From the NCBI GenBank assembly GCA_000934665.2, contig JYFJ02000564.1, forward strand, positions 1 to 64,000: a DNA stretch of 64,000 nucleotides. Reading direction: 5' to 3'. Below are positions 23,109 through 64,000 of the stretch, piece after piece. Position numbers and translations under genes: made by a program. The notes beneath the pieces were generated by a model. It did no database searches and was not told where the DNA came from. It saw only the letters and a list, made by a program, of their open reading frames with translations. Every line of letters starts with the position of its first letter. Position 1 is the first letter of the stretch. The DNA is from Catajapyx aquilonaris. Lineage: Eukaryota.

Positions 23109-24129
23109 TCTTCAAGTATTAAGGCAACACCTGGAAGATACCTGGAGCATGAGTGTGTGTTTTCTGGCCTTCCTCATTCAGGAAAGTGAAGTTTAATAGA
23201 TGTAGGAAGTTGGAATAAAGCCAAGGCCAGTGCAGGGCAAGATGGGGCTAGTTGATATAAGGGATTGTATGGACATGCAAAATGATGGTCCACGATTGTA
23301 ATGGTGAGATGTACTTTTTTAATGTACAAAAACTGATTCTATTATCAATTAGTGATGCTCTCTCAAAGGATATTATGCAATTCTCTCATGGCCACATGTA
23401 ACCTTAATAAAAAGCACGTTTGCTTTCTTTGAGTACATTACATAATGACTGATCATTACTTGTGCTCAACATACCTGTAAGTTCCGCTCCAAGCAGTGTG
23501 GTAAAGAAGAAATGCTGAGAGGTGATGGTGGAGGAGACTACTAAGGTGGTGCATACAGTGAGCAGCAATAATATTCCCTGTTGTGGTTTCCTTTCCTCCT
23601 ATACTACCTCCCACATCTGCCCTCCCCCTCCCTTATTCCCCCTGGGCTCCCTCCTCCTGCCTGTCGCCTGCTGATGATGGGGCTCTCCTCCTGGTATCCC
23701 TCTCTCAACTGCTGATCCTCGTCATGCTGTTGACTAACTAGTTATCCTTGAACCAGACCTTGGATGGAGGGAGGGGTGCCAGTCCAGCTGCTACCACCAC
23801 ATATCGCCTCGGGTTAGGAGTAAGGGACACGAGGCCTGACGACAACAAGGGCGAGGGCGACGTGTGCTGCGTGTGTACATATCAGCTCTAGGTTGATTCC
23901 ATCACCACCACTGCAAGGAGTCACTCTTAATATAATGACAGATGAGACCGTGGCCCTGAGTCTCTCCTTTCTTCCCACTAGCCCGGTCAGAGGACCCGAG
24001 GCACCAACATGAAGGCCATACTGATTCGTCTCCGCAGTAACCATGAGATGAGTTCCAGCGTGCGATTGAATGAGAGGCGAGGGAGCATCAGCTGGCGGCG
24101 CTGCGGGAGCACTACCTGCTGCAGTCATG

Positions 24130-38900: not shown

Positions 38901-40931
38901 CAATAAACAGTGAACCAATCAGCGGGCTCAGTCAAACAACGCTGGCATTTTAATATTGCTTGGTCAGGTCTTTTTCCGATTTTCACCCAACATGTCAGGG
39001 CAGAATTTATTGTACTCTGCCCAGCGTCAAGAGAAAAGGTCTGGTATTTAGGAGGGTCAGAAATGACTACTTAAGAGTGCCCTCCCATGGGAATCTCTCT
39101 CTCTCTCTCTCTCTCTCCTCCCCCCCCTCCCCCCGCAAAAAAAACGAGGGCCCCGGCCCTATCACAGGGAATTACGTACAAACAAACAAACGTATGGAAA
39201 TCTGGCAACTGCTTTATAAGTGTCGCACTGTCTTATATTTCAGTGTTGAGATTGTGCCACTGAGTAAAGATAGCGTGGTTTGCCTGCCACCCAAGCTGGC
39301 CCACCAACTGGGAGGAATTGGACAGATATGTGTGATCTATCGAATTGCTAATACCATTCATCTGATTGATCCCACAACCACGCAGCGTAGGTATTATTTG
39401 TGGGACAGCTTATTTCACTTGTAACATTTTATTTGTAGTTGCAGAGATCAGCAGTAATGTGTACTGGAGACAGCCTGTAGGAGTCCTGTGCTATAGCAAA
39501 CAATTGACTGAGTTCACAGTAATTGATGTGGAGGTGATCCATGCAAATGATCGTGTCACCTTCTCTGGCCAAGGAGCACTTTCTAACAAGGTGAAGATGT
39601 TATTGTTTTGGTTATTTTTCTTTGGTAGTGCATGGTTAACCTGTCTGCAGTGGGCCCTTTGGGAGCAATATTTCCATTATGGACTTGTTGCTTGGTTCTA
39701 AGACGGGATTTTTAATTGATTGAATTGTCTGCATACCTGCAGTGTGTCTCATAGTTTAGATCATATCCACAACGGTGGAAATGGTGCAGGCACTCCTGTG
39801 TCAAGTTGGTACTCATGAGCCCAGGTGCACTTGGCAAATATGGTTCAGTGCAAAAAACTAAAGGCTCATTCCCCATGTGCTCACGGAGCTCAAGGAGCTA
39901 ACTAAGCCTTCTAAACATTTAAACCAGTAAATATATGCCTAAATTGACAAGTTCTATATTTTCCATTACAGCATGTTGCTGCTGATGTATGGGTGGTGCG
40001 TTCCGATGACCTGGGTAAGAATGAGGCCACAATCCATTGCCGGTCTCACCTTGGCCATCTGTTGAAGCCAGGAGACACAGTCCTTGGGTAAAGACACTGC
40101 ATTTATATCTGAGGAGAGCTTTAGAACAACTTGCTTTCAGTAACAAGAATGTATAGGTCTACTTTGGAAACAAGAGATTTACTTGCTAGGTTTCCAGATA
40201 AGACAAGAGACAAGAAAAATGTGATAAACGTAATACCTGTTACATTTTTAAAAATGTGATTTCAGCATTTTTATAACTTGCTGAAATATAATGACAAAAT
40301 TCGAATTTTCTACCCTTGATAAGTTGCTTAGTTTTGTGTGCAGAATAATGAGTTTTTCTGATGCATCCTTGAAATACTTTCATTATTTGCATTGACGTGG
40401 TCAGTGCAGTGCTGGATAACCATCATGGCATTTCCATCTGAAAGAGGTAGTCTGATGAAAGGCAGACATATGTCAGAGCATGACTTTCTGATTACGCAGG
40501 GTGAAAGAGTTGAAAAACATAACAGACTTAGCCGTCACTCTTGTTCTTTCAGAATTGATCTGGCCAACCGCAATGTGAATGACACTAATTTCGAGAAGAT
40601 GCGCAAGGAGCGCATCCCAGATGTGGTACTGGTGAAGAAAATATTTGGAGACAAATCTGCTCGCAACCGCTACCGTAAGTGGAAGCTGCGGCACCTGAAG
40701 CAGACTGAGCAAGACAAGGGAAGTGTCAACCAGGACTACATGGACTTCCTGGAGGATCTGGAGGAGGATCCAGTATACAGGAAAAATGTCAATATTTATA
40801 AAGATGAGGCCAAGGTGGCTGTCTCAATTGATGATGTGGATGGAGAGGAGATCCCAAGGATCACCCTGGAGGAGATGTTGGATGATCTGCATCTGGATGA
40901 GGAAGAGGAGGCGAAGGTTGACATGATGTAG
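32946..40931 (+). CDS. NMD3: 60S ribosomal export protein NMD3, 503 aa, 10 coding exons
   Basis: Exons 32946-32986, 34297-34431, 34508-34658, 35049-35183, 35942-36050, 36634-36784, 39244-39386, 39439-39590, 39972-40087, 40553-40931 (1512 nt). Motifs ILCCGCGVPIEPNPSNMCVGC, LVDAGFVWTEPHSKRIKVKL, VQVRQR...KRTFYYLEQLILK, FLEDLEED, and NES-like ITLEEMLDDLHL. Confidence 0.97.
33486..33745. mobile_element. GC-rich palindromic element (about 110-bp arms) in NMD3 intron 1
   Basis: tttttttccggcggc...tggcaaccctgtcc...tgtttacaaatcgagtgagtg is mirrored by cactcactcgatttgtaaaca...ggacagggttgcca...gccgccggaaaaaaa around a loop of about 38 nt. Confidence 0.85.
34705..35002. mobile_element. TIR element inserted in a (CA)n microsatellite, with internal (CCTAA/CCTAC)n
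   Basis: tgtcttcactaaggtgtggggacgtggaaac / gtttccgtccccagaccttattgaagaca inverted ends; (CA)n on both sides; pentamer array at about 34770-34848. Confidence 0.8.
36085..36369. mobile_element. hAT-type MITE with 8-bp target-site duplication
   Basis: TIRs cagaggttcccaaact / agtttgggaaactctg flanked by a perfect GTCTAAGA duplication (36077-36084 and 36370-36377). Confidence 0.92.
37114..37702. mobile_element. Tc1/mariner-pogo type MITE, copy 2 (NMD3 intron 6)
   Basis: TA-cagtaaaacttctataagtcgaa...ttcgacttagaagttttactg-TA; both arms closely match 26473-27117. Confidence 0.9.
38112..38167. repeat. 24-bp tandem repeat, about 2.3 copies
   Basis: Unit gggtcacccggaggccacccagcg read directly. Confidence 0.85.
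39789..39920 (+). ncRNA. Candidate intronic box H/ACA snoRNA in NMD3 intron 8
   Basis: Hairpin 1 (gcact...tgtcaagt...acttggca...agtgc), ANANNA-compatible AAAAAA hinge, hairpin 2 (aaggct...gctc/gagc...agcctt), ACA at 39915-39917; about 130 nt, ending about 50 nt before the acceptor, in a ribosome-biogenesis host gene. Confidence 0.45.
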
Positions 40932-42122: not shown

Positions 42123-45100
42123 ATGTGGACTGCCATCTCCAGGTTCTTCAAATCCAACTCTTCCTCTTCCTCCTCCGCTGAAGAGGAGGAGGACTACAGG
42201 CAGGCAGAAGAAGCATCCTCCTCTGCCACCGCAAAGGGAGAGGAGGCTGCCTCATCACATGCCCAGCGCAGCAGCTGCAGGACCAGGAGGATGGAGGCTG
42301 CAGGGAACAACGGCAGCCAGGTGCTATGCGTGCCAGACATTGAGGGACCTGACTCATACGACACGCACAAGGTGGGTTGCTGGACCAGGCCTACTACCCA
42401 ATCGCATGCACTGCCCAGATCGCTTGCACTCAAATATCAGTCTAGGGCGGCTTTTATGGATGCTGGATTGATTATGTCAAGATGCAGTCACTGGATGGGG
42501 ATGCACTCCCCACAGTTGCCAGGTGCAGTTGGCTTGCCAGTCAAATGTGACACGTTCGCAACAGCTCAAACATCAATACGTATGGTAACCTCAGTGCAAT
42601 AATGATTATGTCGGGATATCTCATCTACCATCACGTGTATTAATTTATGTCAATACCATAATGAACAGGTGTAGATTTGTGTTATTATTTATTAGTTTCA
42701 TACATGATAGCATAACACACAAACGTATTATCTACCATGACACACAATTTGTCGTTCAATTTCGATCCTACAGCATGCCTTACATGCAGAGCTTTACCAT
42801 GGATGAATCATGACCCAAATATGTGACTCGCTTCATGATAATATTTCATGCAGCAGTGATAGGTGGTGATAACTGATCCTTTTCTCTTGCACAAAATGCT
42901 TGTCAATACAAGACATGGTCATTGTACTAGTGAATTCCACGAATGGAAGATATAGCTGCATGATAAAAATTGTGTCACAAATATATATGTGACCCATCGT
43001 GACTTTTATTACATTTACAATGTGAGGTTATTAGTAGACATGCTAGGACATGTGCGTTATATAATATGAACATGTTGATAGTAAAATCAATGGAATGTCA
43101 TTATTGTGAAACCTGTCAAAGGATTTTGTAAGATGTAATGATCACATAATGGCTTTGTAACTAGGAGTTGAAAATGATTTTTCAATAAGTTGGCAGGTTC
43201 AGGAAAGAGAGGATGTCTCAAATTACTTTATTAATTGTGAGCCTGCTTTTTAGGCTGCATATTTTATACCATAGGGGCATAGGCATTTAATATGTGGATG
43301 TTTATTTTATGGACATAAATTGTTTCTAAAAGATCAAGGCATGATTTGGAACCCTTAGGAAATTAATGATACAAATGCTGGCTAGAATGTATGTTTCTTT
43401 GATTGGGAAGGAACCAAACCGAGTAAAGCTATCTGGCTCTTAGAAGATACGTAGGTGAGACCGACAGATATAGGTGTATAGATGAGAAGACTGAAAACAG
43501 GAAAGTGATCAGAGAATCAAATGTCCACTACTACGACAAGGTGGAGACACCATTGGTGGCGGGTTAGGATGCAAACCTGCTTAGCTAGCATTAAAACTGG
43601 CTACACACAAATTTTGTGCGTGGATGTCATTCTTAATATTAGACCTGGTGATATCACTATTATATTACTCTGTCATCTGCACTTCCTGTGAAGGAACTAC
43701 TGTGGCGGTGTGACATAGTGCAAATAACTTAGTTTTAGCTTCTTTAGTTGTAATGGTGTTTGATTAACTAGATTTCACTTTTAAAACTGCAGTTGTATGG
43801 AGATGAGCCTCAGAGATGATAGCCTATTTAGTGTCCCATTGTAAACATTATACTCATTAATTTTTAAGTGGAATATGCTTTTATTACGAAAGTTTGTTTT
43901 AGAAGTTCAACTTCGTAATAATACTATTTTGTGGCACATGAAATAAGTTGTAGTAATGATGATAGGGAGTGACATGGTATGACATGGGGAAACAATGACT
44001 TGAAATACAACTGATGAAGATCAAAAGAGGTGCAAAAGTGTTGTTCCTCATAGGGAGTGTTTTTTTGGGGGAACTTCCTGCTGTAAATTTAACTTTGGAG
44101 GTGAGTGTGCATGGATGCTTCAGTTAATGATCCCTGGGGTGGGTGTGTGTGTGCCTGTGTACAGGAGGGGAATTGGGGCTGAGGTTAGGACTGAATAAGA
44201 GGGGTTTATAGGAGAGCTTGCAATGATGAGTATAGAGTGGATTGGCTTATTAAAATTTCTATATTAGATTTTGTGTGGTGTCATAATAAAATTACTTTTT
44301 TGCCCATGCAATGACATTTAAGCAGTGAAATGGATTGTAGACTTGTTATGTGTATTATCCAGCAATGTGTTGAAACAGCAGATAAGAGAGCACTATATGT
44401 GATTAATCCTACTACAAACAGGTGACACAGAAATGACATCATATAATGGAGTGGCTTTTGCACGTTGTTTTGGCAATCTGGCTTTTGAAGAGGACCTTTG
44501 CAAGTGCCTGCACTCTACTTTTAATGCAATAATTGTTACATGTACAGCAGTATATTATGGGAATATCTGATTTTTTGCGATGCAAACCTGAGGGCACTAC
44601 AGCATTTGAAATATTTTTAAAATATTTGCATAATTGCTAATTGAAAATATTACGTAAAGGATCATAATTTATGCACGGAAATGTACATTTTGGCTTTAAG
44701 TCGCCAATTACCGACCTGTTGCAATTTTACTGAAATACTGGGATAGTTCCGAAGGACAATTTTAGTCCAGGACAGATATGAACAATATATTAGAAATATT
44801 CTGCCTTACTCCAATGACGTGCTATATTGTAAAGTGGGCCTCTGAATGTAGCACCTGGAGTTTTAATAGCATGTAAGAATAAAATACGAATTGTAGGTAA
44901 ATAATGCATAGAGATAATGTTTGTCATTTGGGTCAGAGAGGAGTGGGCCGTGTGCAAACTTTCACCACCCAGTTCCATGTTCAGTAGTTGCTGAGTTTGC
45001 AAATATAGTTTTCATGTGATACTGCACTAGCCTATTACAGTGGCCTGAAGTATTGTCAAGGTTAGCTGCATAGTAGAGATTCATCCAATCGGCACACATT

Positions 45101-48100
45101 AATTAATCGAAAAAATGTGTTCAAGTGTGATAAGGTGGCAGCACAATGCTGCCAGTACCTATCCAGTGTTGTGTGGCCGATGTTAATATTAGCGCATCAT
45201 TTTCAACTTTGAAGCGCAGGTTTTCCTTAATGCTTCTCCGCTGAATCCAATGAAAATTTAAGCAGCCTGCATTAAAGTGTAATGGGTCATAAATGTTGGG
45301 GTGTTTGCACACATTAGACCATGTTTACCCAAGTGTGAATTCTCCACTCCCATTCGCGTTATTTTTAGAATTAGACAAACTCATTCATAGATTTCGTGCC
45401 TGACTCATCAAGCGAAGATAAGACACCTCCACTTGTCATGTCATCCGGTCAGTCTCACGTCAGGAAGACATTTTTTATGAGTCATTGCATTTGGCAGGGC
45501 CCCCAAAGTGGTGCAAGTCAGGCGGAGTTACGTTGCTAGATGGCAAATCCCCCTTTCAAAATTTTGTTAACGAGAGGAGGGCACCCTTGATACTTGGGTA
45601 TGCAGTCCCGACGCAGTGTACTTTGATCAGTCATGTAGGCAGAAGGGGCGGTGTAATTGGGACGGAAATTGAGGGTAGAGAAACAAGGTGTGATGGGTTA
45701 GTTAGACTGGTGCTGCCAACCAGCGGAGAGGGTCTGACTTTTGGGGGAGTAGAATCGGCAGGGGGGAGCTTTTGTGCACCCACTGCATATCCTCCCACTC
45801 ACCTAGGAAGAACATATATGGGTGTGGTGCCTCTCGCCAGCTGTCTGGTCGATGCCTTGCCAGGTTCACCACGCCCATTTGTATGTGGATGCCACGCGGT
45901 GACGTTTATGACCTTCATTTTCAAAAATGTATCCATATTTTTGTCGCCTAACGAGACACTTCTTTCCATTTGGATGATGGCACCGCACCTGCTGCTGAGA
46001 AGCTGGAGGACTTGGTCTTAGCGAGGCAGCTAAATAGCTTCGTGATGAGTTGGCAGTACAGCTTGGCATAATTGCAATGTGGGGAATATAGTAATAGTAA
46101 TAGCGCGTTAAATATTTTAATGGCAGTCATCAGAGTAATATCTCGAATATCCTTCGTGTTGGTATGATTATGAAATTTATTGTCATTTTTTTTTTGTACA
46201 TTCATACGTTGTACAACTACTGCGATTAAAGCAGGCGGTTTAAAGATTACGAGATGCTTTCAGTATTTTGAGGGCTAGGTCGTGTGCAACGGCACCAATT
46301 CATTGTCTCGACTCATGTTCAGTTACGGAGTTAACGCCTAAAAAATAAGGTCTTCACATTAATTATTACAAGAAGACAAGATAACTCTTATTATGGAGGT
46401 GCACCCATTTGCATTTGAAGTGAAATCCTGTAATCCCATCAGAAGTCGTGTTTTAATCTGGATGCTAAGAGGATTGGCACAAGATCAGATTATGGATTGG
46501 AGTTAAAGAACAAACGCCGACTTGGAGACGGAATTCGAGAACAGTGGGTGGCAGAAGTTACGGAACTGGTGCCCGTAGGGGCCAAGGGGAACCGGAGAAG
46601 TACAAGATAAACTTTTAGTATCATTTTCCAGGAGTCGGGTAAGACAGTAAAGAACTTCCAACCTTGGCTGAATGTCGGGATCGATGATTGCGGCAAAGGG
46701 GTCGCCGACTGATCCAATACGATATCCCCAAAATTCCTCATTCGCCCACAATGGCCCCCGACAAAATTAGGATGTCTCCAGCCACCCATTTTGGGGTAAC
46801 TGATGAGCAAGTAATGTACGACATCCTCTACTCGAATTGTTTCACAGCCAGTCGGAATTATTTAAATGTGGCGGAGGCATTTATGAAATAACTACATGTC
46901 TCTCCAAGGCCTGCAGGGATAGATAGGCGAGAGATGGAGGCAGATACGCATACAATTTCCAGCCGTTGCGGTTGCATTAGGAGCATGAATGCGCAGGGAG
47001 GCTCATTCATAATATATGAGTCGTGTCAAGAGGAAGCGCATTTTGTGACCGCTGGGACCAGCAATAACTGGCCTTTGGTGCCAAATACCGCACACTCTAT
47101 CAGTTGAAACTGGGGAAGGAGGGTGAAAAATAAATAAATGCAGGCTGCAGGGATGTTCTGTGGAAAGTTGGAGGGGAAGAGGTTCAAATCCCAGTAGTAG
47201 ATTTAATGCAGGTTGAAGAGGACTGTAAAAGTCTGCATGTTGTGATTCGGGCTCTCGTGGGATCCATTCCTACAACCTGGGAAGAAATATTTACTGCCTG
47301 GGCGGTTATTATTAAAAAATCGATCTTGCTTCACCTTTTGCTGCGACGTAAACGGAGGCGCCTTCACTGGTGGTCCAGAAGCGATACGAAATCAAGATTG
47401 ATGAGAACACCCAATGGCATGGTGCCGTCCATTGGTTGCGAAAGCTTTCAATTCAAGGACTTAATTTTTGGGGATGCGGTGGAATCGAAACTTGACGGCA
47501 AAAAAAAAAAAAGGAAGAAATTCGGTCGGGTGCGGCAGTTCCCTTATTGGCAAGTATGCTGCTTCGTTGGTGTGAAATGCGACTCCATTATTTAGCAAGG
47601 AAGCTCGTCACAGTATCAGCATACCGTATTGCTGTACAACCTGAATATTCTATTGGAACAAAATGGGTCAGCTCCTTCTCATACACCAGTATGCAAATTG
47701 CATTCTTGTTAGTCCTTGACCCTTGTACCAGACGCCACCCGGGGTGTCAGTATGAAAGATGGCTTGATTATTGCCATCTATAGAATATTTCCAGGTACTC
47801 GACCATTCGAGACGGATGCCCTCCTACAGGATGGACGGAGTGGATGGGATTGAGAGAAGGAGTGCATTGGCGAGATTTATCTCTCGTTGGTCGTCCTTTT
47901 TGTTCCGCTAACCAATAAACGGGCTCCTTTGCCAAGGGCATTGTCATGGCAAAAATGGATGGAAAGTTGCACTTTCTGCTTGGGCTGTTCTCTCGGAGCT
48001 CATTTAGACACGTCACGTCAGCACATTTCGATGGTAGATCACAACAGCTTCTTATGAACTGCGATATATCTGCGAGTAGTAAAGAGGCAGGAGATTGTTA

Positions 48101-51100
48101 TTTGCAAATAAACAAATAAATGCAGGTAAACTGACGATATAATTTAGCATCGGTGAGTAATATCATGATGCTATAAACAAGGACGAGCAGGATTGAATTT
48201 GATCAGGCATCAGCCAGAAATACTTTTCATTTGTTAGATGATAATGCCGTCCCTGGTTGGGTGGAAGGATGAAACGCATCCTATTGCTTAATTAAAACTT
48301 TTCATCTGAGCCACGTGACAATTAATTAAACCATGTTGCATTTCTTAACTGACATGCAACCTTGGTGCGTATAGGCAGAGAAAGTGAGGAAGCACGCACA
48401 AAATCGCATAGGGGGCATATCAATCAGTCTTCGGGGAGAGTCGCAAACATGGGCAAAAATGTGCTCTGAAGATCAGAGAAGTATCGGAGAAGATTTTTTA
48501 TTTTATTTTTTATTTACAAGTTGTGCTTGTTATAACAGAAGAGCTTCGCATAGATTGCTACTGTATTCGAAAATAATATAAAATGCATATACAGTAAATT
48601 GTCGCGGATTTTTAATGGGTGTGGTATTATTGAATGGAAGCTGATGCTGCATAATGAGCTTTTGAAAAATGGAGCAGTGGTTAATTTTTGCTGCGTACAC
48701 GTATATATGTTCGGATGTGAACATATTACTGGAACTTCTACAGGTTTAGTGTCATTTGTGCTATGAACATACGATTAATTTTTTCGTTACGAGGTATAAT
48801 AATTGGACATGATTTTAATACAGGAATACTAGTCTCATGCTGCATAATGAGTTAATTTGAGTTAATGAGATTTACGCCCGAGTAACTGATAATTGTACCC
48901 ATCTGCTGGCCATTGGACTAAGCGACCAAGCGCACATAATGGGCCTGCAAAAAAAATTAGAGTAGGAGTGCTTTTGCTTCGGTGTAGTGAACATCCAAAA
49001 ATCACTTTATGATGTTTCTCTACCCGAAGGCAAGTTATAATAAGAATCATCGGCGCGCAAAATCCACTGCGAAGTCGTCTTGGATCATTCCCATTTCCCG
49101 TGATTCGATCTAACGTAAGGACCTTTCCGGTGGCATTCACCTATTCACACACAAAAAAAATAGTGTGTTTGTAAGCGAAGGAATTCACTTTAGGCAATGC
49201 GATATTCTTTGGATTGAAAGTGTTCCTGAATACTTGTCAACCTAGAATTTTCGGACAATTTGGTAGTCCACTATAAAGTGGCGTAGCAGTTTTCCAATCA
49301 GATGGGAAAGTTGAAAGTTAACCGTACACAGTCTACGTATACCTTTATGGCAGAGATTGGACGAAATTAAGGAAATATTGGGTTAGGTTAACAGGCCGAG
49401 TCCCTCTGGCTAAAGCTCATTGGAGATTTGTTTTCGCTAATTTTCATCTCATTTACTTTTCCCGTAAAGAGAAATGGACTGTGGCTGTAATAGGCCTTAA
49501 TTGAGTGACATTTCCCCGCTGGAAACTGCGTGATGAAGAGCCAGAGGGCACTTCTTATGCGAGAATCGTGTTGAACAACTGCGAAGGGAAACTAAGCCCA
49601 GGGCTACCTGAGAGAAACCTCGACTAATGTGCACACTTTAGTATATGCTCAGGTGTGAAGGTGTGATCCCAGAGGTCTACTAGCCTCTTTTAATACTTTT
49701 TAATTATTTTATGCCAGACATATTTATTGATTTAGTTTCTTTCTTATACTCGTAGGTAATTTTTTTTGCGTTTTTGGTATTTTCTAATTAGTTATTCCTG
49801 TTTTCGCTTACGTATATTCTGGGCTGCCGTTCTGTGTAAATTAATAAGCCAATGAAGGCATGATAACCCTATTTTTTTCTTGAATTACTAAAAAAGTGGA
49901 CCGAACTATTTCTGCGAGTTTTCTCCCTTTCACCGGATAATTGGAAGAAAAACACTTCCGTTCATGAGAGGCCAATCCTTCCATTAAGTCCTTATTTCTA
50001 GTCGAGTTTTTTCTTTGTTTCTCTCAGTTTAGGCAGGGTGGAGCATTCTCCCTGAGGCTGTGCTAGAAAACTGTAATAAAAATTCAATGATATGTGGACG
50101 GTGGGTGTAATTTTCGGAAATATTTGCCTTAAATATTGTTTTATAGACCCACACTATGATATTTTTTCACTGTGCATACACAGTGTGATTGCAGTATGTA
50201 CATGAAACGTATGCTCTCCATGGCCATTAAGTCATAAATTAGGTGACACAAATAATGATATATGTTGAAGGATTTGCTTGCTCGGATTTTACACACAACT
50301 AACTCGAGACAGCTGCAGCAATGAGACGTAAATGCTGGATTACCATGGCACGGACTATGACTCCGGATGGAATATGGCGATAGACACGGATGGATCCAAG
50401 TGAGGTCACGGATGAGGAGCATATGGTATAGGGACGTCAGAGTGGTTCTTCAGCCAATGGAAAACTTCCCCTGGATTGGTAACAGGTGGTAATGCTGAAT
50501 GGATGCTGATGGGCATGTGTTTGTCCCCCATTCGGGTGGGAGTGACGGTGGAGTTCGGATGCTGATGGGAAAGGTGACGCGGTACAGTGCTTCAAATGAA
50601 GGGTGTCCCAGTGGACGAGGATCTGGCGGCCAAAAGGAGGCCTATGTCCAGGAAGAAGATGGTTCACAGGTTGACGTCTTTAGATGATCGACCAGGTGGG
50701 TCTCACGTTACTCGGGTGGATTTTTGCAAATTCGACCGGTGCGGGCATTGATATTTGCTAAAAATTGAGTATTTAATTATCTGGGCAGGTATTCAAGTCT
50801 GACCCACTTGAATATTATGTCGCGTGTGACTTTTTGACAGGCCTCTTTTTTTCGAGATCAGTGGCCCTGAAATTATATCCCCCCCGAAAAGCCTCCAAAA
50901 GAAAAGCCCTAATATGCGTGCAGGTCATAAAATATTGCGGAAAATCAGGAAGAGGAGTAGGAAGAAAAGTACTTCAATTCCCCTGCTGTGTGTCTAATTG
51001 AATTTTTTACACTTCTGCTCTTGGGTGGAATTGAAAATGTGACAATGAGGAAATGCACTTTCAGTGTGATACGCAACTCTGGACAGATCTCTTGTAACGT

Positions 51101-54100
51101 TATTGGGAAAATACATAAGCTGTGGATATGGTCGTGATTGTGGGATGTATGTGCATTTCGTAATTAGGGTTTACCTGTAAAATTATATAGTACAGAAGCA
51201 TGAAACTTAAAGCAAAGTAACGTAAGGAGGCAGTTTCATGAACATTTTATTGTTTGAAAATTATTTGTATCGGCTTTCTGTTCCCGTTTTGCTAATAGTG
51301 ACAGTGTACTGCACCATAATTATTCAAGTGAAATAATACCGGTAGAGAGTATAGTGGTAGAGTAAATTGCCAGAAAACTCGCAATGTGTAATTTCCTACT
51401 CGTGCCAGTAACATATTAGAGCGGTTTTTTTGGAGGATTTTTTTTTTCTTAAAGAAAAGAGCTCCTTTGTTTCTGATATTGGCTCGTGCCCTGGTATCCA
51501 ATTAGTTATTATCGATTCCCTTTGGATAGCTTCTGGAGACTCGTGGAGCGATCTCGAAGAAGAATTTGTTCGGCAATACGAGCCCGTGAAGAGAATAGCT
51601 GCCAAGGCAGTTTCCAGAAATCCTAGCATCGTCCGATTATCAGCTAACACCGTACAAGTTAGGGCAGTGATCCACCCTGTGCCATCTCGTCCTTCATGTG
51701 GAAGCAGCCACGAAGAAGAGTGTTCTGACTTCTCGGCCCCAGTGCGGCCAGAAAGGCGCAAGAAGGTGGACCGCAAGCTTTACGTGGGAGTCAAGAGAGA
51801 AGTGACCAGAAGAAGAATTTTGCCTAGAAGATGTAGTGGACTTAGGAGAAAACAAACGCGGAGTTTCAGATCTCGACGAACCGAGAGTAAGCAGTCGGAA
51901 GTGCCCACCGAACCCCACGAATTTCCATCAGATGTCAACCTGGGTTTCATATATGTTCCGTTTGAAAGTCCGTTGTCTGTGGAGGGCGAAGACACTAATT
52001 CGTTAAGCAGTCTGGAATCGTTTATATTCGAGCCGAGGACAGACCACCGACACGGAGAAAGTGCTGACGTTTCATCGCCACTGGACAGCTTGAATGATGC
52101 AACGCAGAGTGAATACCAGGACGAGGTCCAGCCTGACTTTGTGACCGCTTTTGCTCAAGAATATCGACAGAGCATTCGCCGACAACAGCAGGAAGCGACT
52201 AAAGGGACACTGGACGACAGTGGTGTATTGATGTCACCTTCGGTGGTGGATTCTTCCGAATGCATAGAAACATTGTACGATTTTTTGGGTAAGTCGTCGG
52301 AAGGAACTGTGGTGAGGCCCACCAGTTGGATGTATGTAAAAGGAGATGGATCTCCTGTTGTGAGTGTGCCTTTGGTGCCAATAACCAGCGCAAGCGGCAG
52401 TGCTGCAGTGACAACGAATAAAAACACCGCTTCAGAAAGAGTGTCTTCGGAATCAGACACTGCTGCTGGCGATGGGAGTGGACAAGAGAAGGATGCCAAG
52501 CCGTTATCAACCGAGACAAAAATATCAAGAGCAAAGGCCATTCCCTTGTTTGGGCCGGAGAAAAACGAACAAATGATTCGTGAGCTGAAGATGAAACTGC
52601 GACAGAGGTTTCAAGATGACCAACCAGAGAGCCCATCAGTTGAAAAGAAGATTCTGGTCAAATGCGAATCTGGGACATCAATTGCATCGCGAAGGGAACT
52701 GCTGACCAAAATGTTGGGAAGAAACCCAGCAAGCCAACCACCTTATTTACCGCCTCCGCCATCACCACCACAACCACCGCAGGCGCCTGAACCAGAAATT
52801 CTAGCAGAAATAGATGCCACCAACAGATCGGAATCGCCAGTGGTGACGGCGGCAGTGCCTCAGCAACAACCTGCAACTACTTTCACGACCGTCGAAGAAG
52901 ATCAAAGCTTGTCGACATTGACGGTGCCAACGCCGGATTATTCACTTGACCGACGCTCTCAAGACTCACCGGAATGTTCACTTGGCACGGTCAACGTGGC
53001 GGAATATGATCGTGTGGACATTTGGACGGAGCCTCATTACGCCAATTACTGCTGTGGATGGGCCTCAACTTGCCACCAATTGTGCCGAAATTGTCGCAAG
53101 CAGATGTGCGTTTATGAGAACCTAATGAACAATAACGCCGAGTGGTTCTGTCCCTGCTGTCCAGACCAGCTGACCCGCCGTAACGCGATCAATTCCTGGA
53201 GTGACATGGAGAGCTTAATTTTTGCTGACGAGGCTCGGGTTATGTCCGCTTCCGAAGACCTCATCAAGACCGGGTGTGGGCTGCCTGCTACCAGAATGGC
53301 ACCGTACCGTGATGATTGGTTGTTCTGGGAGCAGGTGTCAAAGAAAAAGAATTCGCACATGCCAGAGGAGCAGTTGCAATGGAAAGAAGACAAGACTAGG
53401 AGGATGCTTCTGTGGATCTTCCAGGGTCAAGGAGGGACGTATGGTCTCTACGATTTTCCTTGGTGGAAGGTAGGAACTTCTTGCACTATTTAAAAAATCA
53501 CGCGTATGAAACAAATAAGGGTAGGTTGTAAAATTGTTGCGGGATATCTGATCACACGCCATGAATCACTTGTGGTTCGCAACACTCAGCGAGCAATTTC
53601 TCCTTGGGAATGCGTGCGAGGTGACTCTGACGGCCTAATGGAAATCATATGTGACACATATTTGCGGGGAGGGGGGGCTACTATAGTTAATTAGAATTTA
53701 TGGGGTACTTCGACCATCAGGATGCCTGCGGGACGGGAGGAGCAATGACACATGCGATCATGCAAGTAATATCGAAGCCCGTTTATGCCAAGTAATGAAC
53801 TGCATTGACCTGGAAAAGAAAGGTGTTACTAAGGCGTGCACTGTTCCAGGTTAATATCAGGCCTCTTTCTTTACACTCCCTCCTTTGTTCATTATTTTTA
53901 CTGCCACGCTAACACGTCAACGTTGTCACCAAATATTGACAAGTTCAGCCGTGAAGGAGAAGTTGTGCATTTTTAACTTCCTGAAGGACAATATTATTCT
54001 ACATTACCATGATGTGAGACAAAGTTGGGGAGAAAATGGAAAAACTGTCTTCATTCCGTACCGCTTGTGAAGTTTCAGTTGCCTCTAATATTTTGCGTGT

Positions 54101-57100
54101 AAATTCCCCTCATTACATACCGCATTCACTTATTCGAGAGGAAATGATATTGACACACCACACACGTAGCCCGGCGGGGTTGTTGTCCTTCCTCTCGCAA
54201 ATACTGTCATCATGCCAATGAAGAGTACTGGAGTTTGTTAGCAAAGGTGGAGTAACGGGCAGGGTCCATGCCCGCATTCAAGTCTCCGGGCACCAACAAG
54301 TTTCATGAGCAGCAGTTGGGCGACCATGATTCTGCTGCTTCCAAAGTTTCTCGAGATCTGTTGCGGCTGGACGCTCACTTCCTCGTAATTACATCATAGT
54401 ACAGTATGTACACCAGGTGCAGAGCGACTGAGCAGTTCACCTGAGGGATTTTTCAGACCATATGCTAGCATTGCTTGAGGGACTAATGAAATACGGGATG
54501 TATAGGTTCTGCAGGCCTGGAATTCGAGGACTCGGTGGCTCCAGCAATGCAGCGGTTTGTTTGATTAGCGCAAAATAGAGAGATGGGTTGGAATAAGTGC
54601 ATTGGTTTGCATTTGCATACAGTTAGGTGGTGATAATGACCCTGCGTAGTTCCACTTGGTCTGGCAGATTTTTTTTATTGGCCCCGCGGCACGTGGGTTT
54701 GCCCTACTTGAAACCCTTGCGGACGATTACATTTTTATACGCCTTCACGCTTGTTGGTTTGTCTGGTTTTTCAGCACAGCCAGATATTATGACTGCATAC
54801 GATGTTGGTTGTACGTTCAAATTTACTTACATGCATTTTAAATGCGAATAGTGTTGGGTCGTATACAGATTTCGAACCCCATAGAACGGTGCAAATATGT
54901 GGAAGCACTAACAATAATTTGCATAGTATTGTTGCAACAGTCAATAATTTATTATAATGTGCTATTGTGCCTCTGATTCGGTTCAAATCCAGTTTGAATA
55001 GGTAACAGTACCTGCTGTGCGGGGGGTGCTTTATAGTCAGTACGTTTGAGTTTTGCTACATCCTGTTCTTAATGCGCATGAACTTAGCTTATTATTCGGT
55101 TGCACGAGGGATTTATTTGTTGGCTTTAATTAATTCCGGTGTCAGAGACTCAATAAGGGGGTCCAGCGCATAGGTCAAAATTTGCACAATATTGATCTGA
55201 AAGGCTATTATTTGGCATTAGTAAGTGGCCTCGTTACGGGTGTACTGTCCCATTAGGATGAGGAAGGGATTGATTACTGCTTCTTGTGTAAGGTTAATTG
55301 AGCTAATCGAGATGGATGACACGTGGGACCAATCAAGTGCGGCATACACTACTTCGCAGGAAGTGAGCATGACAGGTATTTCCAGGTCATTTGGTAGGGA
55401 CTCACTTCTGGGTGAGAACTGCGGAAGTCGAAGTCTAAGCATGCACTACGAATGCTGAACCGCAAAAGTTAATATTATTAGCGGAATGAGGAAATGACTG
55501 ATAAATGTTTACGGTACATGTTTGTCTTCATTGTCTTCTGCATGGGATTGCTGCAGGAATGGCGAGCTAATTAGATTATCATCGTGGCATTTTGATATGC
55601 ATCCATCCAGATATTAGCTTACAGGTTGGGAGATGGGAGAGTTGAGGAATTGGCCAAAAGATGGCGCGAGCTCGTGTGTTGTGTTTTGGCCTGCTCGGGT
55701 GTCAGTCATGCGTTCAATTCTCCAACCTTGACTGCGAAATCGGACATTTTATACCGATACAATAATCGATTCAAGCCTACCTTGTTCATCCGTAACTCAG
55801 CACAGTGGTGACTGAATATTTTCAGGCAGATTGAGTGACATCACTGCATGTCTGTTATGCGATTTTCTGAGGGGGGGGGGGGGGTAGCCAGTTGCATTTC
55901 ATGAAACTGTTGGTTTCTGGCTGATTCTGCTGAAACCGTCTTCAGGTGTTTTCCGGTCGGTTTCGGATGGTTTCTGCATGAAAGTGGACATCAGTTTCAC
56001 GAAGTGGCTGCTACCCATGATTTTCTGGTTAATTTGACTCATTGTGCGGTTTGTGGCGCGAAAGAATGGGTGACTCGTCAGAGTGACGTTGAGAAAGGTT
56101 ATGGTCAATAACCAGCACTTGCACGTCGAAGTACATTCGTGTGGACGAATTTCCCAACAGGCTTTCTAAAGGAGGAAGTTCCGGAGGGGACTGGAATTCC
56201 AAGCCGCTTATTCTTCCTCCACTTTTTTTTTGCGTTCCGAATTCTTTTACCTTTTTTTCATCATTTTTTACACTGTCCGTTACGTTGCTAAAATTGCAGG
56301 AGTCGTGAAAGTGTAGCGAGGTTGTGATTAGTTTCTCTTCAATTTTGTTTGTGTCGTCACGTGAATAGACATGCTCAATGGCTTCTGGGACTGTATGGTA
56401 TGCAACTATTATGCAATTAGTAAGAAGTAACCACTGATATATACTGGGAATGAGTGCAAAGTCCAAGGGGAAAGTTGAGGACTTTTATTGTCAGCCTGTC
56501 GCCTTGGCCAGTCGCGAAGGCTTGATTTCCATGTAAGGGGTCCAGAGCGTGCGTAATTTTGTAGTACACACGAGTAGATTTTGGGCAAGTCAGGGGCAGA
56601 GGGTGTGGGTGACGACCTCGGTTGGAATGTATTGAAGGCTGCGAACATGTCCTCACCTATCTTCAATGGGACCATCTCTACTCAGGAGCTACCACAGGCC
56701 TTGATGCGCTGCCCTGTCGGGTTATGTAACTTCTTGCAGGCATCAAAGAGGCACATAACTCTGTGTGCAGCCCTGACGTCATCATGGTGTCATGCCTTAT
56801 ATGTGCGACCTACACCGTCCCAGGACTGGATAAACGGGTTGGGTCTGCATCCTGGAGGAATTCGGCACGTCACGGACAGATAATAGTCTAATTTGGGAAC
56901 ATGTCTGTTGGCAACAGATTTCGATGATTGCTCAATTGATTCGATTGCCTTTGATTATTTTGACTTGGAAATCGCATGAAAAGGCCTTGAGTTGCGCACA
57001 TTGGATGACTTTGACAGGAGATTCAGACCAAACTCTGTAGCGCCGAAATTATTTGCCATATTTATTTGTAATATTTATATTGACATATGTTTTAATTCTG

Positions 57101-60100
57101 TAATTTAATTGTGTATATTTAGTGTGTGTAACTATTTAAATATTGTAATTTTAATTTTCAAGAATAGTTTGTGTGATAGAGGGTGGGGAGGGTGTTACGC
57201 GATACCTCTAGTGACATACACACTTTGCATTATTTTGTAATCATGAGCCTGTTAGGCACTTGACGCCCACCTTCCATTCGACATTATGATTGCTATATGC
57301 TGAACAACTACATAGGGCTAGATTTAACAGCCCAGTGTTGTTTTGCAAATGGGCGGCGTTCACTGGAGAGGAAGTAATATCTACGGTGGTGACTCAAAGA
57401 CACGACATGAAGAGGCGAAGTGACTTCTTCGCCCCCCCCGCATTTTCCATCCCACCCCCTACACACCACCCTTTTTTTTCCTCTTCTATGCCACCACCTT
57501 GATGGTTTTTTTTCTTTCTTTTTTAAACCTCCTCTCTTCCATATGCTCATTTCGGGGCACACCTTCTCCTCGGTACTCACCTGGCCTCTTTACCTTTTCA
57601 TTGTGCGCTTCGAGGAGGCAGCTGCTGGTTGCACTGTTCGTTTATATTGGACTTTGGTGGAGTATATTTTGGGCGGATCCAAAGAATATTGTCGCGTGTG
57701 ATACTGAGGTGATGTGTGCTCATGTGCGGTGTTGTGCTCGATAGAGGGAAGGAAAAAAGCGACATGGTGCAGCTCTCGGGGTTCTTTAACATCAGGGAGA
57801 GGGAGGAACATGAAGTCAAAGAGGTGAGTTCTAATGGGAGCCTTTGACGTGGCGATTTGCGATTTTACGGGTGTAAAATTATGATGTCAACCGTAGCTGT
57901 GTTTTTGTGTGCGTGTGTTGGAAGGAAAGTGCGTGTAATTACGAGCTTGCACGCACCCAAACTGCTTAAGAATGAGAGTTTTATGCAAAAACGTATTTGA
58001 TACAAGCATGCGCAGTTGTCATTTGTATTGAGGATGTATTGAGGATTGAATCGCCGTCCACGCAACTGCAGCGTAGTGCGAGATAGAAGAATATGCACTG
58101 AAATATTAATAATTGCTATTAGCATTCTGCTCTTACCAGCTTGTTATTTTTAGCGTATACTCTAGTTTATTGCATGCAGAGATCAGCATACACAAGTCAC
58201 GAGATTACACCTTCCACGAAAAATGTCTGAAAGAATGAAAAGAGGGTGCATAAAAAAAATAAATGCCTTCGCCTCTGAAAGTGCGAAACCAGTTGGGAGC
58301 CTTTTGTAGGTTAATTCATTACAATAGTGACGCCCTCTTTATAGCATCTCCACCCCTCTGAATGCCAACCTTATAGCGACACACGCATTTCTGAAGGCCA
58401 TTACGGGGGCTGCAATTGTGCGATGAACAACAACAGTCGGCTTCTGGTCACCCACGCTTCAGATATTTGTGGTTGTCCATATTCTGGACATGCACGTAAC
58501 AATGGCTGTGTAGAGATTAGCCGCCATCCTTTTTCCCCGGCGAATTTTTACCCGGCAGAAAACCGTTACCGCTTTTTTAGATAATTAACTTTTTGAAGTT
58601 GAGCGTTTCGGCACGAAGCTACAGTTACACAGGTTATGTTTATGACGCACGTACGTGTACCTAAGTCATAACCCGTGAACAGAATGCTTTCGGGTCATTC
58701 ACGGAGCCCCTGATCCGTGACCTGGTTGACAGACTTCTCTGAATTGCAAATCGGGTGTCTGGGCACGTGTAACCATTAACGATGCGGGTCTTGGGAGCGT
58801 GTGCGAACACAGCAGAAGTAGCAAAACATCGGAGGTTGGTAGCACCTAGGCTAGAATGTGCCGGAGTCAATGATATGGATCCCCCACCCACCGTGTGATT
58901 TTTACGTGGTTCGGTGCTTCTTTTGAGGCCCCGCGACCCGTGACCCCGACCGACGGGGCGTTACAGGAGACAGGTGAAACAGTAGATTTTTGTCACCAGA
59001 AGACACGGTCTTTTGCTTTTCTGTCTGGGAGAAGGGAAGGGTCACGTCCCCAAAGGTGGATGAAACGAGACAAATTTTTGCTAACCTCACTTCCCGGGGC
59101 ATTAGTCCCGTGTTATAGCCCTATAGACTGCCGGTATAACACAGGATGTATTCAGTCGCTTGCAGTGACCGACGACTATTTTATGCAACATATAATATAG
59201 AACCGGTATGGGACGACTTATGTTACTAATATTCTACTTACTGTACATCCTCCAGAACGGCGACCTGGACTCGGTTAAGCGTGAAGCCTATACGTTTCTG
59301 ACATTTTAGCTCACCCTGTAAATGGTCCGTGACATTGCACAGCATTGTGTTGGCAACGTGATCCCAAGTGAGTCAAGTGCAGCTACCTGCCCCAATTTTT
59401 GAGAGGAAGCCCACTTTATGATCGAGCCACCCCGTTCTCTCTTCGTCTCCAAAAGAGTATCGTCGGTAGGGCCTCCATGTGGGCCATTCACCCTCGCACG
59501 GTCATCTGTGTTTTCATGCGACCTCCTTCGGTTGCATCACCAGTCGACCCCCTTTTTGTATATACCGCGCTTGCACACGTTTCGCGCCGATGGGAAGACT
59601 CTCGCAGGACTCACGTAGGGAAAGTCCTTGGCAGAGGCTGAGAGATCTTTGGTTGGGACGAAACATTCCGATGCATCCGAAATAACAGCATCCCTAAGGG
59701 GAGGCTACGCCCCTGCACCATGGAAAGCGTAAAATGGCTCAAAAATGGATATAAAAGGTGGGCAGCCAAGGCTAGGTGACGTCCCCAGGAGCTGCCCACA
59801 TACCACAAAAGGCCGGCCTTCGTGCTTGGAAGATGGCCTCCAATATACGGGATTTGATGGACAGCCGGCGTAATTACAGGACAGGCACACTGTCTATTGG
59901 GTCACGTGACCGGGGGAGATGACGTTGGGGTGGTCATATATTGTGGAGGTGTATACTTAATTTTCGGGGGAGTGACCCCGACCCACATCAGGGGGTGGAA
60001 TTTCGTGATTTGAGCTTTAACAAGAAGGTGCGAATTTGCTGAAATACTGCGTTTGCCGACGTGGGGGGTGATTAAGAGTAATGGAGTTTTTGACGCAGCA

Positions 60101-63100
60101 ATTATGGGCTTGTCTGTGTGCAACAAAAAGAGGGAATGGGGGGGGGNGGGGGGGGGATCCTAGATAGCTCACTTCACCCATGCTAGACGTTTCCCACATA
60201 AATGTCACGCTCCTTTCTTGAGATCTCGAGTGTGCAATGCCGTCATTAACGTGACTCTTTTCAGTAAGAGTGACTTCCAGGAACTACCGGATTATGTGCT
60301 CAGGAATTTCTAATCCGCTCATCTAGTGCTATTTTTGGACTAGAATTGCATTTTGAATCAGGAAGACACGGCGAAGTTGATCATATCGGTTATGCATAGT
60401 CATGTCGACCATGATGCAGACTAAAATAAGGAAATATTGAGGATATTGTGTTGAACGAACGGGGCCATGGCCATTAATCATGCCACGAAAGTATTTGTCC
60501 CAATTGGAGGAGGCAGTACACATTGTTTGATGTCCGATTTGTTCTTTCCTTTTTGTCCCAATACTCACGCATCCATGGCATTGTAAAGAGGGGGCGGGTC
60601 AAATAGATAGGCTATAGCATAATGATAGTGAGCTAGGAATATCGTATTTGGCTGGGATAGGCGGGGTCGAGTTTCCTGGGACGCGCAGGCTATTCGTTGC
60701 AAATTAACGAGTGGAGTAGTCTTAATTACATAGATCACGCGCTGTAGACTGGGGAGCATTTCCCCGTTTGTGTCCCACCCATCTACTACTTTTTCCGCCA
60801 TGCCCAAGAGGAAGTAGGTTGCCTGCCTCCTCCTTCCCGAGTTGGAGTCGCCCATTCCTTCTCGCTGATTTATGACCAATTGCGCATATCGACTTTTTTT
60901 TTTGTTTAATGGAATTTGGCACAAACAAGCTATTTCTCGAGATGCCAATGTCCTCTACCGAATAGTGACTTCCCGCTCCCCTTGGGACCTTTTTATCGGA
61001 CTCGTATCGTCGACCTCGCTTTGGAAACAATAAGGTACCGAAGAAGAAGAATTAGAAGAGAAAGAAACCAGTTGTGGTGGGAACTTGTTCTGGCTTCCAC
61101 CAATGCCGCCGATGTATTTAAACCTTTCCTGCTTCCCCACACACAAGCTCACTTAGCGTTTTTTTTATATATTCTCACTCTGTTCTTTTGCTGCCACAAT
61201 CCGACCATTTACTGTGGCAGATACACACGCCGTTATGGTGCTTGTCGGGGAATGGAAAAAAAAGGTCCGGAAGTTGGCCATGGTTCGGAATCAAACATGT
61301 GAAACCACGCTCTTTCTCACCCTAAATATTGTTCTCACATTCCATCATGTGTGGAGTATGCCGGGTTTTTTTTCTGTTTTTTGCGGCGTGCATTGTGTGA
61401 GGGCCACTGTACTAATTGATTACGTCTGAATTTCCAAAGTCTTGAATATAAAAAACGCCCACGCCCCACTACGTTAAAACAATGATTTCTAATTTTGGAT
61501 ATTTAATTCAGGCAATTAGGAAGAGAGAGTGGACCGGACTGGTTGAAACAATTCTATCTACAAAGTCATTGCGAAGTCACATCGGCGCACCTGCTGTGTA
61601 GTGGTCAAAATGTAGGCGGGTTTAGAAATAACAGGTGTAGGCGCGGCCTGACACTAGTTCACCCACACACACCTACACTATGTAATAGATATCCTTGAGA
61701 ATTTCACCACTGTCAATCGCACCCTGTAAGCAACGGACACTTGAGATTTCTCTCGGATGACAAGATAACGATGCTGCGCGCAACGGTGTAGTAGTACTGT
61801 AGTGCTAACACAACTAGTAAACAGTGGGACATTTTTCAGAAATAATGACTTCAATTGTAATGTGAGAGAAAGTTGCAGGACCTGACACGTATGATGAATA
61901 TGAATTTGCAGGAAGAAAGCTATTTTACGAATAGCTTCTTCTTGAAGAGGTTTCTGCAGGAGACATGGGCGATAGTCGGCGGAACAAATGGAAGAAGGCG
62001 GTTGCTGTTTGGAGTGAGGGACCAAGCGAAGAGTAGCAAACTTCTTCAAGCAGAAAGAATTATGGGGCATGGGTGGGTGGGTGGGGGTGAAGGGGGAGAT
62101 TTGGCTTTGTGCCCTTTATGTCAGTACGTTTGACATGTTGGGGTAGTACTTTACCGATGGGCCACATTTAAGATCTCTGTTGTTGTACCGCTGGGAATGT
62201 GTGACGCCCTTTTCTTCCCTCGTATGCAAGTACAGCACAATGTGTCCAGTTGTCTAGGAAAGTTAGAAAACCATACAGTCCAACGTGAATACGGTATTAA
62301 TGTGAAATCCGAAGGTATCCCATCACAATTGTCGCTCAAGAGTCACGTCAAGTTCAGGGATGAAACTCGAAACTTTTTCAAGTGTACGGGTTGTAACATT
62401 GCATCTCGAGAAACGCGCTAGGGGGCGTGGCTTATCAGATCACATGACGGGCCTGCTGCCAACGGAAATCGCGCTTTCGGTGGAAGGACCACGTCCCACG
62501 TGGTTACCAGGCTCGGCAGGCTGTCATTTGACACTTTGGGCCATTCCCTTCGCGAAAGTTTTTTGCCGTCTCCCAGAAAATATGACAAAAATACACAAGA
62601 GTGGGAATTGGGGACATATGTAGTTTGTGGTGCTCTTAAGCTTGACGTGTATGGAATATTTTTGCATAATTTGAATTGACAAATATTCAGAGGTCTCGTT
62701 TACACTGCCTTGTTAAGGTAGCCCTTTAAATAATATGGTAGTTATGGTTTGTGTCTACATTACAATAGGCTTACTAGCAGCAAAAGCTAATAATATTAGC
62801 TCTTGCTAGCAGTCATAATTAAACTAGATATTCTTATACTTCATACTGCAAGAGTTGACACACTGACAGACACATAACTAGTCTGTCATTACAGCACCAT
62901 ACGGATGTCTGTTCCTAGGAATTAGCCAAGTGAGAATAGTGGTGGATCTTTTCACAGAGGTGTTGAGCTTCAGAAAGAGAAAAATCACATAGATTAGATA
63001 TCCAGCAGTTTACAGCCATTGACTTACTAAAAAATCTGGTATGTGTTGTTCTAATGCACAATTTGTCTTTGAAAATTAGGATTCATGCTGAAAGGTGTGG

Positions 63101-63370
63101 GATGTGTGGGAAATGTGGTGATCTTTGTCCCATGGATGGTAAATTAACTGTAATGATAGGCATAATTGCAATGGAAATGTGGGAATGAAAGAAATTCAAG
63201 TGTAGGGAGAAGTAAGCCATTGCATGAATCACCCCAAAATGGAAGATGCTGATGATATCTTTTATTTATTGCAGGCTAAGCAACGTGCCTCCATAAAGTG
63301 GCTTCTCAGCAAAGCATACAACAATAAAGTTCCAGAGGAGCTGAGGGACCCATTTTACAAGGATCATGAA
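42123..63370 (+). CDS. Patronin: Patronin / CAMSAP microtubule minus-end protein, 5' part (exons 42123-42371 and 63275-63370; continues beyond the window)
   Basis: A phase-0 join gives ...PDSYDTHK-AKQRASIKWLLSKAYNNKVPEELRDPFYKDHE, matching the conserved CAMSAP/Patronin N-terminus (YD..xAK..A...W...KAY...P..L.DPFY); donors aag|gtgggt and gaa|gtgagt, acceptor ttattgcag. Confidence 0.88.
50596..53493 (+). CDS. Uncharacterised protein of about 687 aa nested in Patronin intron 1 (predicted exons 50596-50695 and 51530-53493)
   Basis: A 2-kb stop-free frame (51430-53493) with no ATG near its start but an acceptor ttccctttggatag at 51529; the upstream exon MKGVPVDEDLAAKRRPMSRKKMVHRLTSLDDRP-G|gtgggt has the matching phase 1. 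S/E/P-rich body and Cys/Trp-rich C-terminus; no family recognised. The first exon is less certain than the long exon. Confidence 0.75.
57764..57823 (+). CDS. Candidate alternative first coding exon of Patronin (MVQLSGFFNIREREEHEVKE)
   Basis: ATG in good context (gacATGg), 20 codons, consensus donor gag|gtgagt, phase 0 compatible with the exon at 63275. Confidence 0.5.
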
Positions 63371-64000
63371 GTGAGTTTTGTTGTAGCATTTAAGCTATAT
63401 TTATTTTCTTGTTCACTTTCTATTCAAGTTGAGCACAGTTTTGAAGGTAAAGAGTGATTTTAAAAGGGGTATTTTGGAGGGTTTGAAAATGTCAAATAAG
63501 TTGATATTTTCTGGCCAAATGAAGAATGTTTTACATTGTCTGAAATTTTTTATTATTTGAAGAGTGCTGATAGTGACTCCTGACATATTGTGTAAGGTAA
63601 TCTTTGTTGAAGGCAAGCTGGAAGCCTGCAGACCTACTTTTATATTTTCCAGAGAAAGGATCACAGTGCTATCTTGTGGAAGCAACAGAAACAGTTGTTC
63701 CGTTATTGCTGCTAATGTTACATGGATACAAAAGTAACTGCTCAAAAATTATACACTTACTTCTAAAAAGCACTACTGATAAGGACATTTTAATTGGATC
63801 ACCTGTGTATATTTCTTGAATTATACAATATATTGAAATGGCCTTAATGGCTAACAATATTTTGGTATGAAGTGGCTTATTTTTAAGCAGTTACTTTGGA
63901 ATAGTTACTTTTAGGTATTAGGATCTCAGAGGTTTTAAGTGATTACATTCAGTTCAATGGAAAACATGTCGTGAGGCCTGTTCATGGTCTCAGGAAGTCT

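Follow-up and report, generated by a model that had tools for sequence, protein, structure and literature searches.

Patronin and CAMSAP proteins bind microtubule minus ends and organise non-centrosomal microtubules, and their cellular placement is still an open question. Their Pfam families are CH_CAMSAP2_N, CAMSAP_CH, CAMSAP_CC1 and CAMSAP_CKK. Genes with mutually exclusive alternative first exons or promoters, which change the N-terminus of the encoded protein, form a general category of their own. We analysed a stretch of 64,000 nucleotides from Catajapyx aquilonaris (assembly GCA_000934665.2, contig JYFJ02000564.1, positions 1 to 64,000 of the forward strand; hereafter the window), in which a long open reading frame lies on the same strand as Patronin, 9.8 kb upstream of the exon where CH_CAMSAP2_N starts. 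A preliminary description of this DNA had read the frame as an orphan, lineage-specific gene for a 687-amino-acid protein, nested inside Patronin intron 1. Judged by its conservation, the frame is a real coding exon of a conserved family. We consider it probable, with moderate confidence, that it serves as the principal exon of a conserved module situated 5' in the Patronin locus, which supplies an N-terminal extension of about 680 amino acids from an alternative promoter.

Relatives of the frame were sought with an exhaustive phmmer search of the whole frame against 1.84 billion representative proteins at E<=1e-3. Eighteen matches were found, six of them at E<=1e-10 and the best at 4e-18; a word-index protein search with the whole frame gave no matches. 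P0013 (466 amino acids) was dropped from the family: its similarity consisted of eight stretches on query residues 82-110 (29 residues) and was judged repetitive and low-complexity. An alignment of the C-terminal 100 amino acids of the family (A1) was used as a search profile and found 14 proteins, seven of them new, and one further search added one more, giving 25 relatives in total (P0002 to P0027 except P0013). Counts out of 26 include the window. With 25 relatives found by protein searches, the labels orphan and lineage-specific fall, and what is at issue is one specific junction, from 53469 to 63275. Three of the relatives are named: "Patronin [Chionoecetes opilio]" (P0004), "hypothetical protein FJT64_000199 [Amphibalanus amphitrite]" (P0022) and a CAMSAP CH-domain protein of Trinorchestia longiramus (P0027). 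Going by these sequences, the module family is present at least in crustaceans. When the 25 relatives were compared with the window by tblastn, all matches at E<=0.01 fell within 51526-53520 or within 63227-63370, the latter being Patronin exon 2 as matched by relatives fused to CAMSAP. Elsewhere in the window, there were just two chance-level matches (E 0.42). The tblastn blocks in the frame were 51526-51588, 51928-52050, 52519-52620 and 53176-53472.

Pfam scans were run on 18 of the 25 relatives, and precomputed Pfam columns were used for others. The only Pfam matches among the relatives were CAMSAP families. In four of them (P0004, P0005, P0008 and P0027, all predicted proteins), CAMSAP CH or CKK domains directly follow the module, and the remaining 21 are stand-alone predictions. 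The joins read ..WWK|AKQRAS.. in P0005 and P0027 and ..WWL|AKQRAS.. in P0008, while the join in P0004 is made to a later CAMSAP exon. The peptide AKQRAS... is encoded by the exon beginning at 63275 in the window, which aligns to the fused relatives P0005 and P0008. This exon matches positions 15-47 of CH_CAMSAP2_N with an E of 1.3e-11, and the downstream Patronin exon reported earlier is thus real. The module itself has no similarity to any CAMSAP domain or other Pfam family, although the models of four other species have it as the CAMSAP N-terminus. It is already merged into Patronin/CAMSAP in two public annotations, without comment. For annotation, this means that the module carries the label "hypothetical protein" in one species and is included in "Patronin" in another, and that at least one of these labels covers only part of the locus.

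The homology between the window and the relatives ends at AAG|GTAGGA (53469/53470), a phase-0 donor that is in frame with the phase-0 acceptor at 63274/63275. This donor was absent from the earlier account and makes the frame compatible with Patronin exon 2. The motif WW[KQL] directly before it is reached by 24 of the 26 sequences, 19 of which are unspliced and five of which continue into another exon. Val (GTN) directly follows WW[K/Q] in all 19 unspliced family members, and the sequences after that Val are unrelated in sequence and length in most lineages. P0020 ends in ..QWWKVS-stop and P0005 reads ..QWWK|AKQRASVAWIV. The two would seem to represent one gene in its two forms, their near-identity being a reading of the printed sequences and not a computed value. 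Since the AG|GT at the end of the frame is conserved and agrees in phase with Patronin exon 2, and 4 of the 25 relatives are predicted fusions, the module looks like part of the Patronin transcription unit and not like an intruder in it. The earlier proposal was that same-strand nesting would compete with Patronin splicing or termination. The shared strand stands, but the competition is better recast, with the module as an apparent part of the Patronin unit.

The polyadenylation signals AATAAA and ATTAAA were counted on the + strand between the donor and the next candidate exon (53470-57680). None was present compared with 2.2 expected (P(0) = 0.10), which gives weak support to transcription running on past the frame. 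Over 50076-64000 as a whole, there are 4 such signals on the + strand and 19 on the - strand, and 43.5-48.4 kb holds 14 on the + strand. Early polyadenylation downstream of ~50 kb may be selected against, giving this skew; one segment was tested.

Alternative 5' exons are in use at the Patronin locus. A second run of the same species (X5), the kind of which is not on record, was compared with 43600-63500. It contained a 306-nucleotide contig that covers 57681-57821, skips 5451 nucleotides (GT..AG, cut +2) and continues through Patronin exon 2 into the next exon (GQEHLKPHIV). Since this contig is spliced, run X5 contains spliced RNA. The RNA-supported exon at 57681-57823, which was absent from the earlier account, has an in-frame stop at 57710-57712 upstream of its ATG. 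A further candidate at 42291-42371 has no Pfam match, and its likeness to CAMSAP N-termini (VP.I..D.YD...AK) is one that we presume. The frame likely lies inside Patronin intron 1, as had been claimed: exon 2 is verified, and the upstream exon is putative and depends on that presumed resemblance. A "YD" likeness between the frame end and the 42.3-kb exon was rejected, as the register differs and the relatives are without it. Like genes with alternative first exons, the window has three candidate 5' coding exons (42.3, 50.6/51.5 and 57.7 kb) that all end in phase 0 before the same acceptor of one common exon, and one of the three is RNA-supported. The locus would differ from such genes in that one alternative adds about 680 amino acids, including a conserved element predicted to fold, instead of a few residues, and in that the module could also give a free protein if it is left unspliced.

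The exon model of the module is internally consistent. The stop-to-stop frame at 51412..53493 on the + strand runs for 693 codons without a stop. On a reading of its translation, the first ~270 codons contain no ATG, and it must therefore be an internal or terminal exon. The 2-kb open frame, the phase-1 acceptor and the phase-compatible upstream ATG exon of the preliminary description are all present in the sequence. The reading frame of the ATG exon at 50596 is open from 50578 only, and the exon ends at a phase-1 donor, CAG|GTGGGT (50695/50696). An AG at 51528-51529 provides a possible exon start at 51530 in phase 1 (putative acceptor 51529/51530). An alternative phase-1 acceptor AG at 51453-51454 has a stronger and longer T-tract. 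An acceptor near 51530 agrees with the tblastn comparison, in which the earliest block of homology begins at 51526-51538. The two exons add up to 100 + 1940 = 2040 nucleotides, or 680 codons to 53469, and seven read-through codons before the TAA give the 687 amino acids proposed earlier. We also agree, from the phases, that the 42.3-kb exon, which ends in phase 0, cannot be joined to the phase-1 acceptor. The same tblastn search found no upstream module exon in 42.4-51.5 kb. A hidden Markov model of the "Y.SRKL..R" region of the relatives ranked the open reading frame of the 50596 exon first of 431 in 42.4-51.6 kb, at an E of 4.5, which is not significant.

All eight family motifs occur in the window frame, collinear with their order in the family (Table 1). 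The product is mostly low-complexity with short conserved motifs, in line with the earlier view that it is mostly disordered, and every peptide motif quoted then is present in the translation. Three of the features singled out are shared by the family, namely the amphipathic segment (MIRELK.KLR), PTPDY and the Trp-rich tail; the basic patch has no clear counterpart in the relatives as judged from the printed sequences. The Cys cluster is not conserved: in 11 aligned sequences, the number of Cys in this interval ranges from 0 to 10. A zinc-binding reading of it found no conserved Cys/His ligands, no Pfam match and no PDB match. PTPDY, which had been said to fit PxxDY, is present and invariant across 11 aligned sequences. 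The motif therefore stands, and binding through it is putative, PxxDY being what we take to be the SH3-ligand motif of Eps8 and Nck. PTPDY was also considered as a form of what we take to be the EB-binding motif LxxPTPh. This was rejected, as neither the flanking Leu nor the hydrophobic position is retained.

The closest counterpart of the module is an unnamed family of long, mostly disordered arthropod proteins, exemplified by P0022 and the N-terminal 1500 amino acids of P0004. The window has the eight collinear motifs and the Trp-rich tail in common with this family, with a tail identity of 32-45%. The window version is much shorter (~680 compared to 870-1820 amino acids) and has neither the repeats in the middle nor the long region at the N-terminus. 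It also reads YVPF where the family has YVPM, and its Cys-rich insert is not common to the family. In the longer relatives (P0004, P0006, P0008, P0020 and others), the DSW..E..(F/I)YEP motif occurs two to three times, for example as "DSWSNGEFEKIYEP" and "GTWSRSELETIYEP". The S.ES.IF motif likewise recurs in relatives in IFEP, IFKG and IFADE versions. The N-terminal arm seems to consist of short motifs in repeated copies.

Conservation within the family is highest in the Trp-rich tail (phmmer query 594-688), for which A1 has nine invariant columns. AlphaFold2 was run on A1 (14 sequences, last 102 amino acids) and placed helices at 12-33, 51-62 and 67-89. The predicted local distance difference test score (pLDDT) was 79-88 over residues 51-80 with a mean of 65, and the predicted template modelling score was 0.37. 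Tail residues 51-89 are predicted to form a helix-turn-helix. A Foldseek comparison of this tail model (mean pLDDT 65) with the PDB gave nothing meaningful (best E 5.1). Other searches were similar: no Pfam family was found at E<=1, a sequence search of the PDB gave one match at E 0.51 and a profile search one match at E 2.2, neither meaningful, and the ESM Atlas search gave nothing usable. Rfam had 0 matches over the whole window.

Taken as an N-terminal extension of Patronin, the module would be expressed as follows. A promoter near 50.5 kb would give a transcript with the ATG exon at 50596-50695 and the 1.94-kb exon at 51530-53469, and the donor at the end of the latter would be spliced to the first common Patronin exon at 63275. 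The resulting arm of ~680 amino acids would replace short N-termini of 27 amino acids (from 42.3 kb) or 20 amino acids (from 57.7 kb). It would be mostly disordered with conserved short motifs, and its Trp-rich helical hairpin would stand directly before the CAMSAP CH domain. If the donor were left unused, translation would run seven codons into the intron and give a free 687-amino-acid protein, possibly a second real product. Because the arm combines disordered sequence with conserved short motifs, we infer that it would act as a docking or localisation arm, bringing the minus-end protein to partners or sites. If this is true, arthropods would have an unstudied route to localise or regulate Patronin, through a conserved N-terminal arm of 700-1400 amino acids that carries its own docking motifs and sets a small folded element next to the CH domain.

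Several observations weigh against splicing of the module onto Patronin. The fused models may be artefacts of gene prediction; same-strand nested genes are often merged by predictors, and the two named fused relatives (P0004 and P0027) are genome annotations. Agreement in phase arises by chance in about 1 in 3 cases. A search for RNA over 50400-53800 gave none. Run X5 contains almost none of the frame's words and no contig on the frame, which says nothing on expression, and its one spliced contig in the region joins the 57.7-kb exon, not 53469, to Patronin exon 2. As the Val is always GTN, conservation of a C-terminal "WW[KQ]V" peptide would look just like conservation of a donor. In 11 of the 19 unspliced sequences, many of which are close relatives, the tail has <=4 residues after this Val, and tails that short are fairly unlikely for an unselected intron (~0.2-0.3 expected by our own arithmetic). 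Both P0014 and P0019 have FFDSL 40-50 residues after WWKV, and sequence past the putative donor may be coding in that lineage. For eight stand-alone relatives, the contig (4.1-7.2 kb) exceeds the open reading frame by very little. These contigs, whose type is not given, look like transcripts that read past WWK. Such findings could be explained by a separate conserved gene that shares the strand of Patronin and is nested in it or lies just upstream, with a poly(A) site soon after 53493 and a free 687-amino-acid protein ending in WWKVGTSCTI; the CAMSAP fusions would then be annotation artefacts. The preponderance of stand-alone predictions, the transcript-like contigs, the stops soon after WW[KQ]V and the retained FFDSL all point this way, as does the phase-1 acceptor that excludes the 42.3-kb Patronin exon. 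A separate gene does not account as well for the end of the homology, which falls precisely on an AG|GT whose phase suits the CAMSAP exon, for post-Val tails that are unrelated in most lineages, or for the models of at least four other species, in which the module and the CAMSAP 5' end adjoin on one strand. The lack of a canonical poly(A) signal on the + strand within 4.2 kb downstream also argues against it, weakly. We regard a wholly separate gene as somewhat unlikely, but a free protein, alone or beside the fused form, is a serious possibility. A related proposal, which we find a shade more doubtful, is a switch at the Patronin 5' end, where a transcript from one internal promoter would either stop in the intron and give a free adaptor of ~690 amino acids or be spliced onto the Patronin CH domain. 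The balance of splicing and termination would then set the share of Patronin tethered to the partners of the adaptor, which PTPDY, YEP and IFEP/IFADE suggest to be of SH3 or SH2 type and of other docking kinds.

Another possible explanation is that the donor splices to a short terminal exon other than Patronin and gives a stand-alone protein with a different C-terminus. P0016 (..WWQ|LLPPSTSV..) could be such a case when compared to its barnacle relative P0022 (..WWQVGAACC..), which is near-identical on a reading of the printed sequences. However, among the 24 sequences extending to the motif, just 1 shows a continuation of this kind, and tblastn finds no conserved downstream exon in the window except Patronin exon 2, so we think this quite improbable. 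It is more improbable still that the frame is a transposon or viral open reading frame, a decayed pseudogene or a chance open frame, as might be proposed from the lack of an ATG over ~270 codons and of a Pfam domain. An uninterrupted run of 693 codons and collinear homology to 25 proteins that are free of transposon domains are hard to reconcile with this, and no Pfam family for a transposase, reverse transcriptase or integrase was found in the frame. There are no terminal repeats in 44-60 kb, where a search of 44000-60000 showed no long direct repeats and only one weak inverted pair. Coverage by the DNA run X1 is even across the region, at a depth of ~34.5 that equals the flank depth and is not a repeat depth. 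The earlier judgement that this is a real coding unit and not a transposon is upheld by the lack of transposon families and terminal repeats. Splicing of the module onto Patronin remains our preferred reading. The features of the locus and of its neighbourhood are listed in Table 1.

Table 1. Coordinates of features in the window and of the family motifs in the open frame
Feature	Position	Strand	Details
Ankyrin-repeat/SOCS-box gene	19457-23111	-	Pfam
STAM-like gene	27997-29974	+	Pfam; VHS and SH3 exons, then a Pro/Gln-rich exon
NMD3 exons	34221-40931	+	Pfam; end ~1.4 kb before the putative Patronin start
Putative canonical Patronin first coding exon	42291..42371	+	MEAAGNNGSQVLCVPDIEGPDSYDTHK|GTGGGT; AAG|GTGGGT donor, phase 0; 27 amino acids
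Putative first coding exon of the module	50596..50695	+	ATG to CAG|GTGGGT, phase-1 donor; 33 amino acids + 1 nucleotide: MKGVPVDEDLAAKRRPMSRKKMVHRLTSLDDRP
Main coding exon of the module	51530..53469	+	1940 nucleotides, 647 codons after the shared codon; eight family motifs, DSWSDLEEEF..YEP to ..WWK
Trp-rich C-terminal domain	53191..53469	+	SWSDMESLIFADE ... RM..Y.DDWLFWEQV ... KTRRMLLWI ... WWK
Splice donor GTAGGA	53470..53493	+	Phase 0; if unspliced, 7-codon tail VGTSCTI, then TAA
RNA-supported alternative Patronin first exon	57681..57823	+	ATG 57764; encodes MVQLSGFFNIREREEHEVKE (20 amino acids), then |GTGAGT, phase 0
First common Patronin/CAMSAP coding exon (exon 2)	63275..63370	+	AKQRASIKWLLSKAYNNKVPEELRDPFYKDHE; acceptor and donor phase 0
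Family motif DSW..E..F..YEP	frame residue 43		
Family motif NLG.IYVP	frame residue 176		
Family motif S.ES.IFEP	frame residue 200		
Family motif MIRELK.KLR	frame residue 388		Matched in 19 of 26 sequences
Family motif PTPDY	frame residue 506		In 11 of 26 sequences, twice in three of them
Family motif WSD.ES.IF	frame residue 596		Longer form WSD.ES.IFADE
Family motif RM..Y	frame residue 628		
Family motif WW[KQ]	frame residue 684		Trp-rich tail ends in WW[KQL] in 24 of 26 sequences

In a literature search that did not extend to subscription journals and FlyBase isoform tables, we found no description of such an N-terminal arm on Patronin/CAMSAP. Where "N-terminal extension" was used in the literature found, it concerned other proteins or the CKK domain, and not an arm on Patronin. 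In PMC7717695, "long isoform" refers to kat-60L1.

Near the start of the window, a frame on the - strand at 1318-1674 contains a run of 13 Cys codons, which is a trinucleotide repeat.

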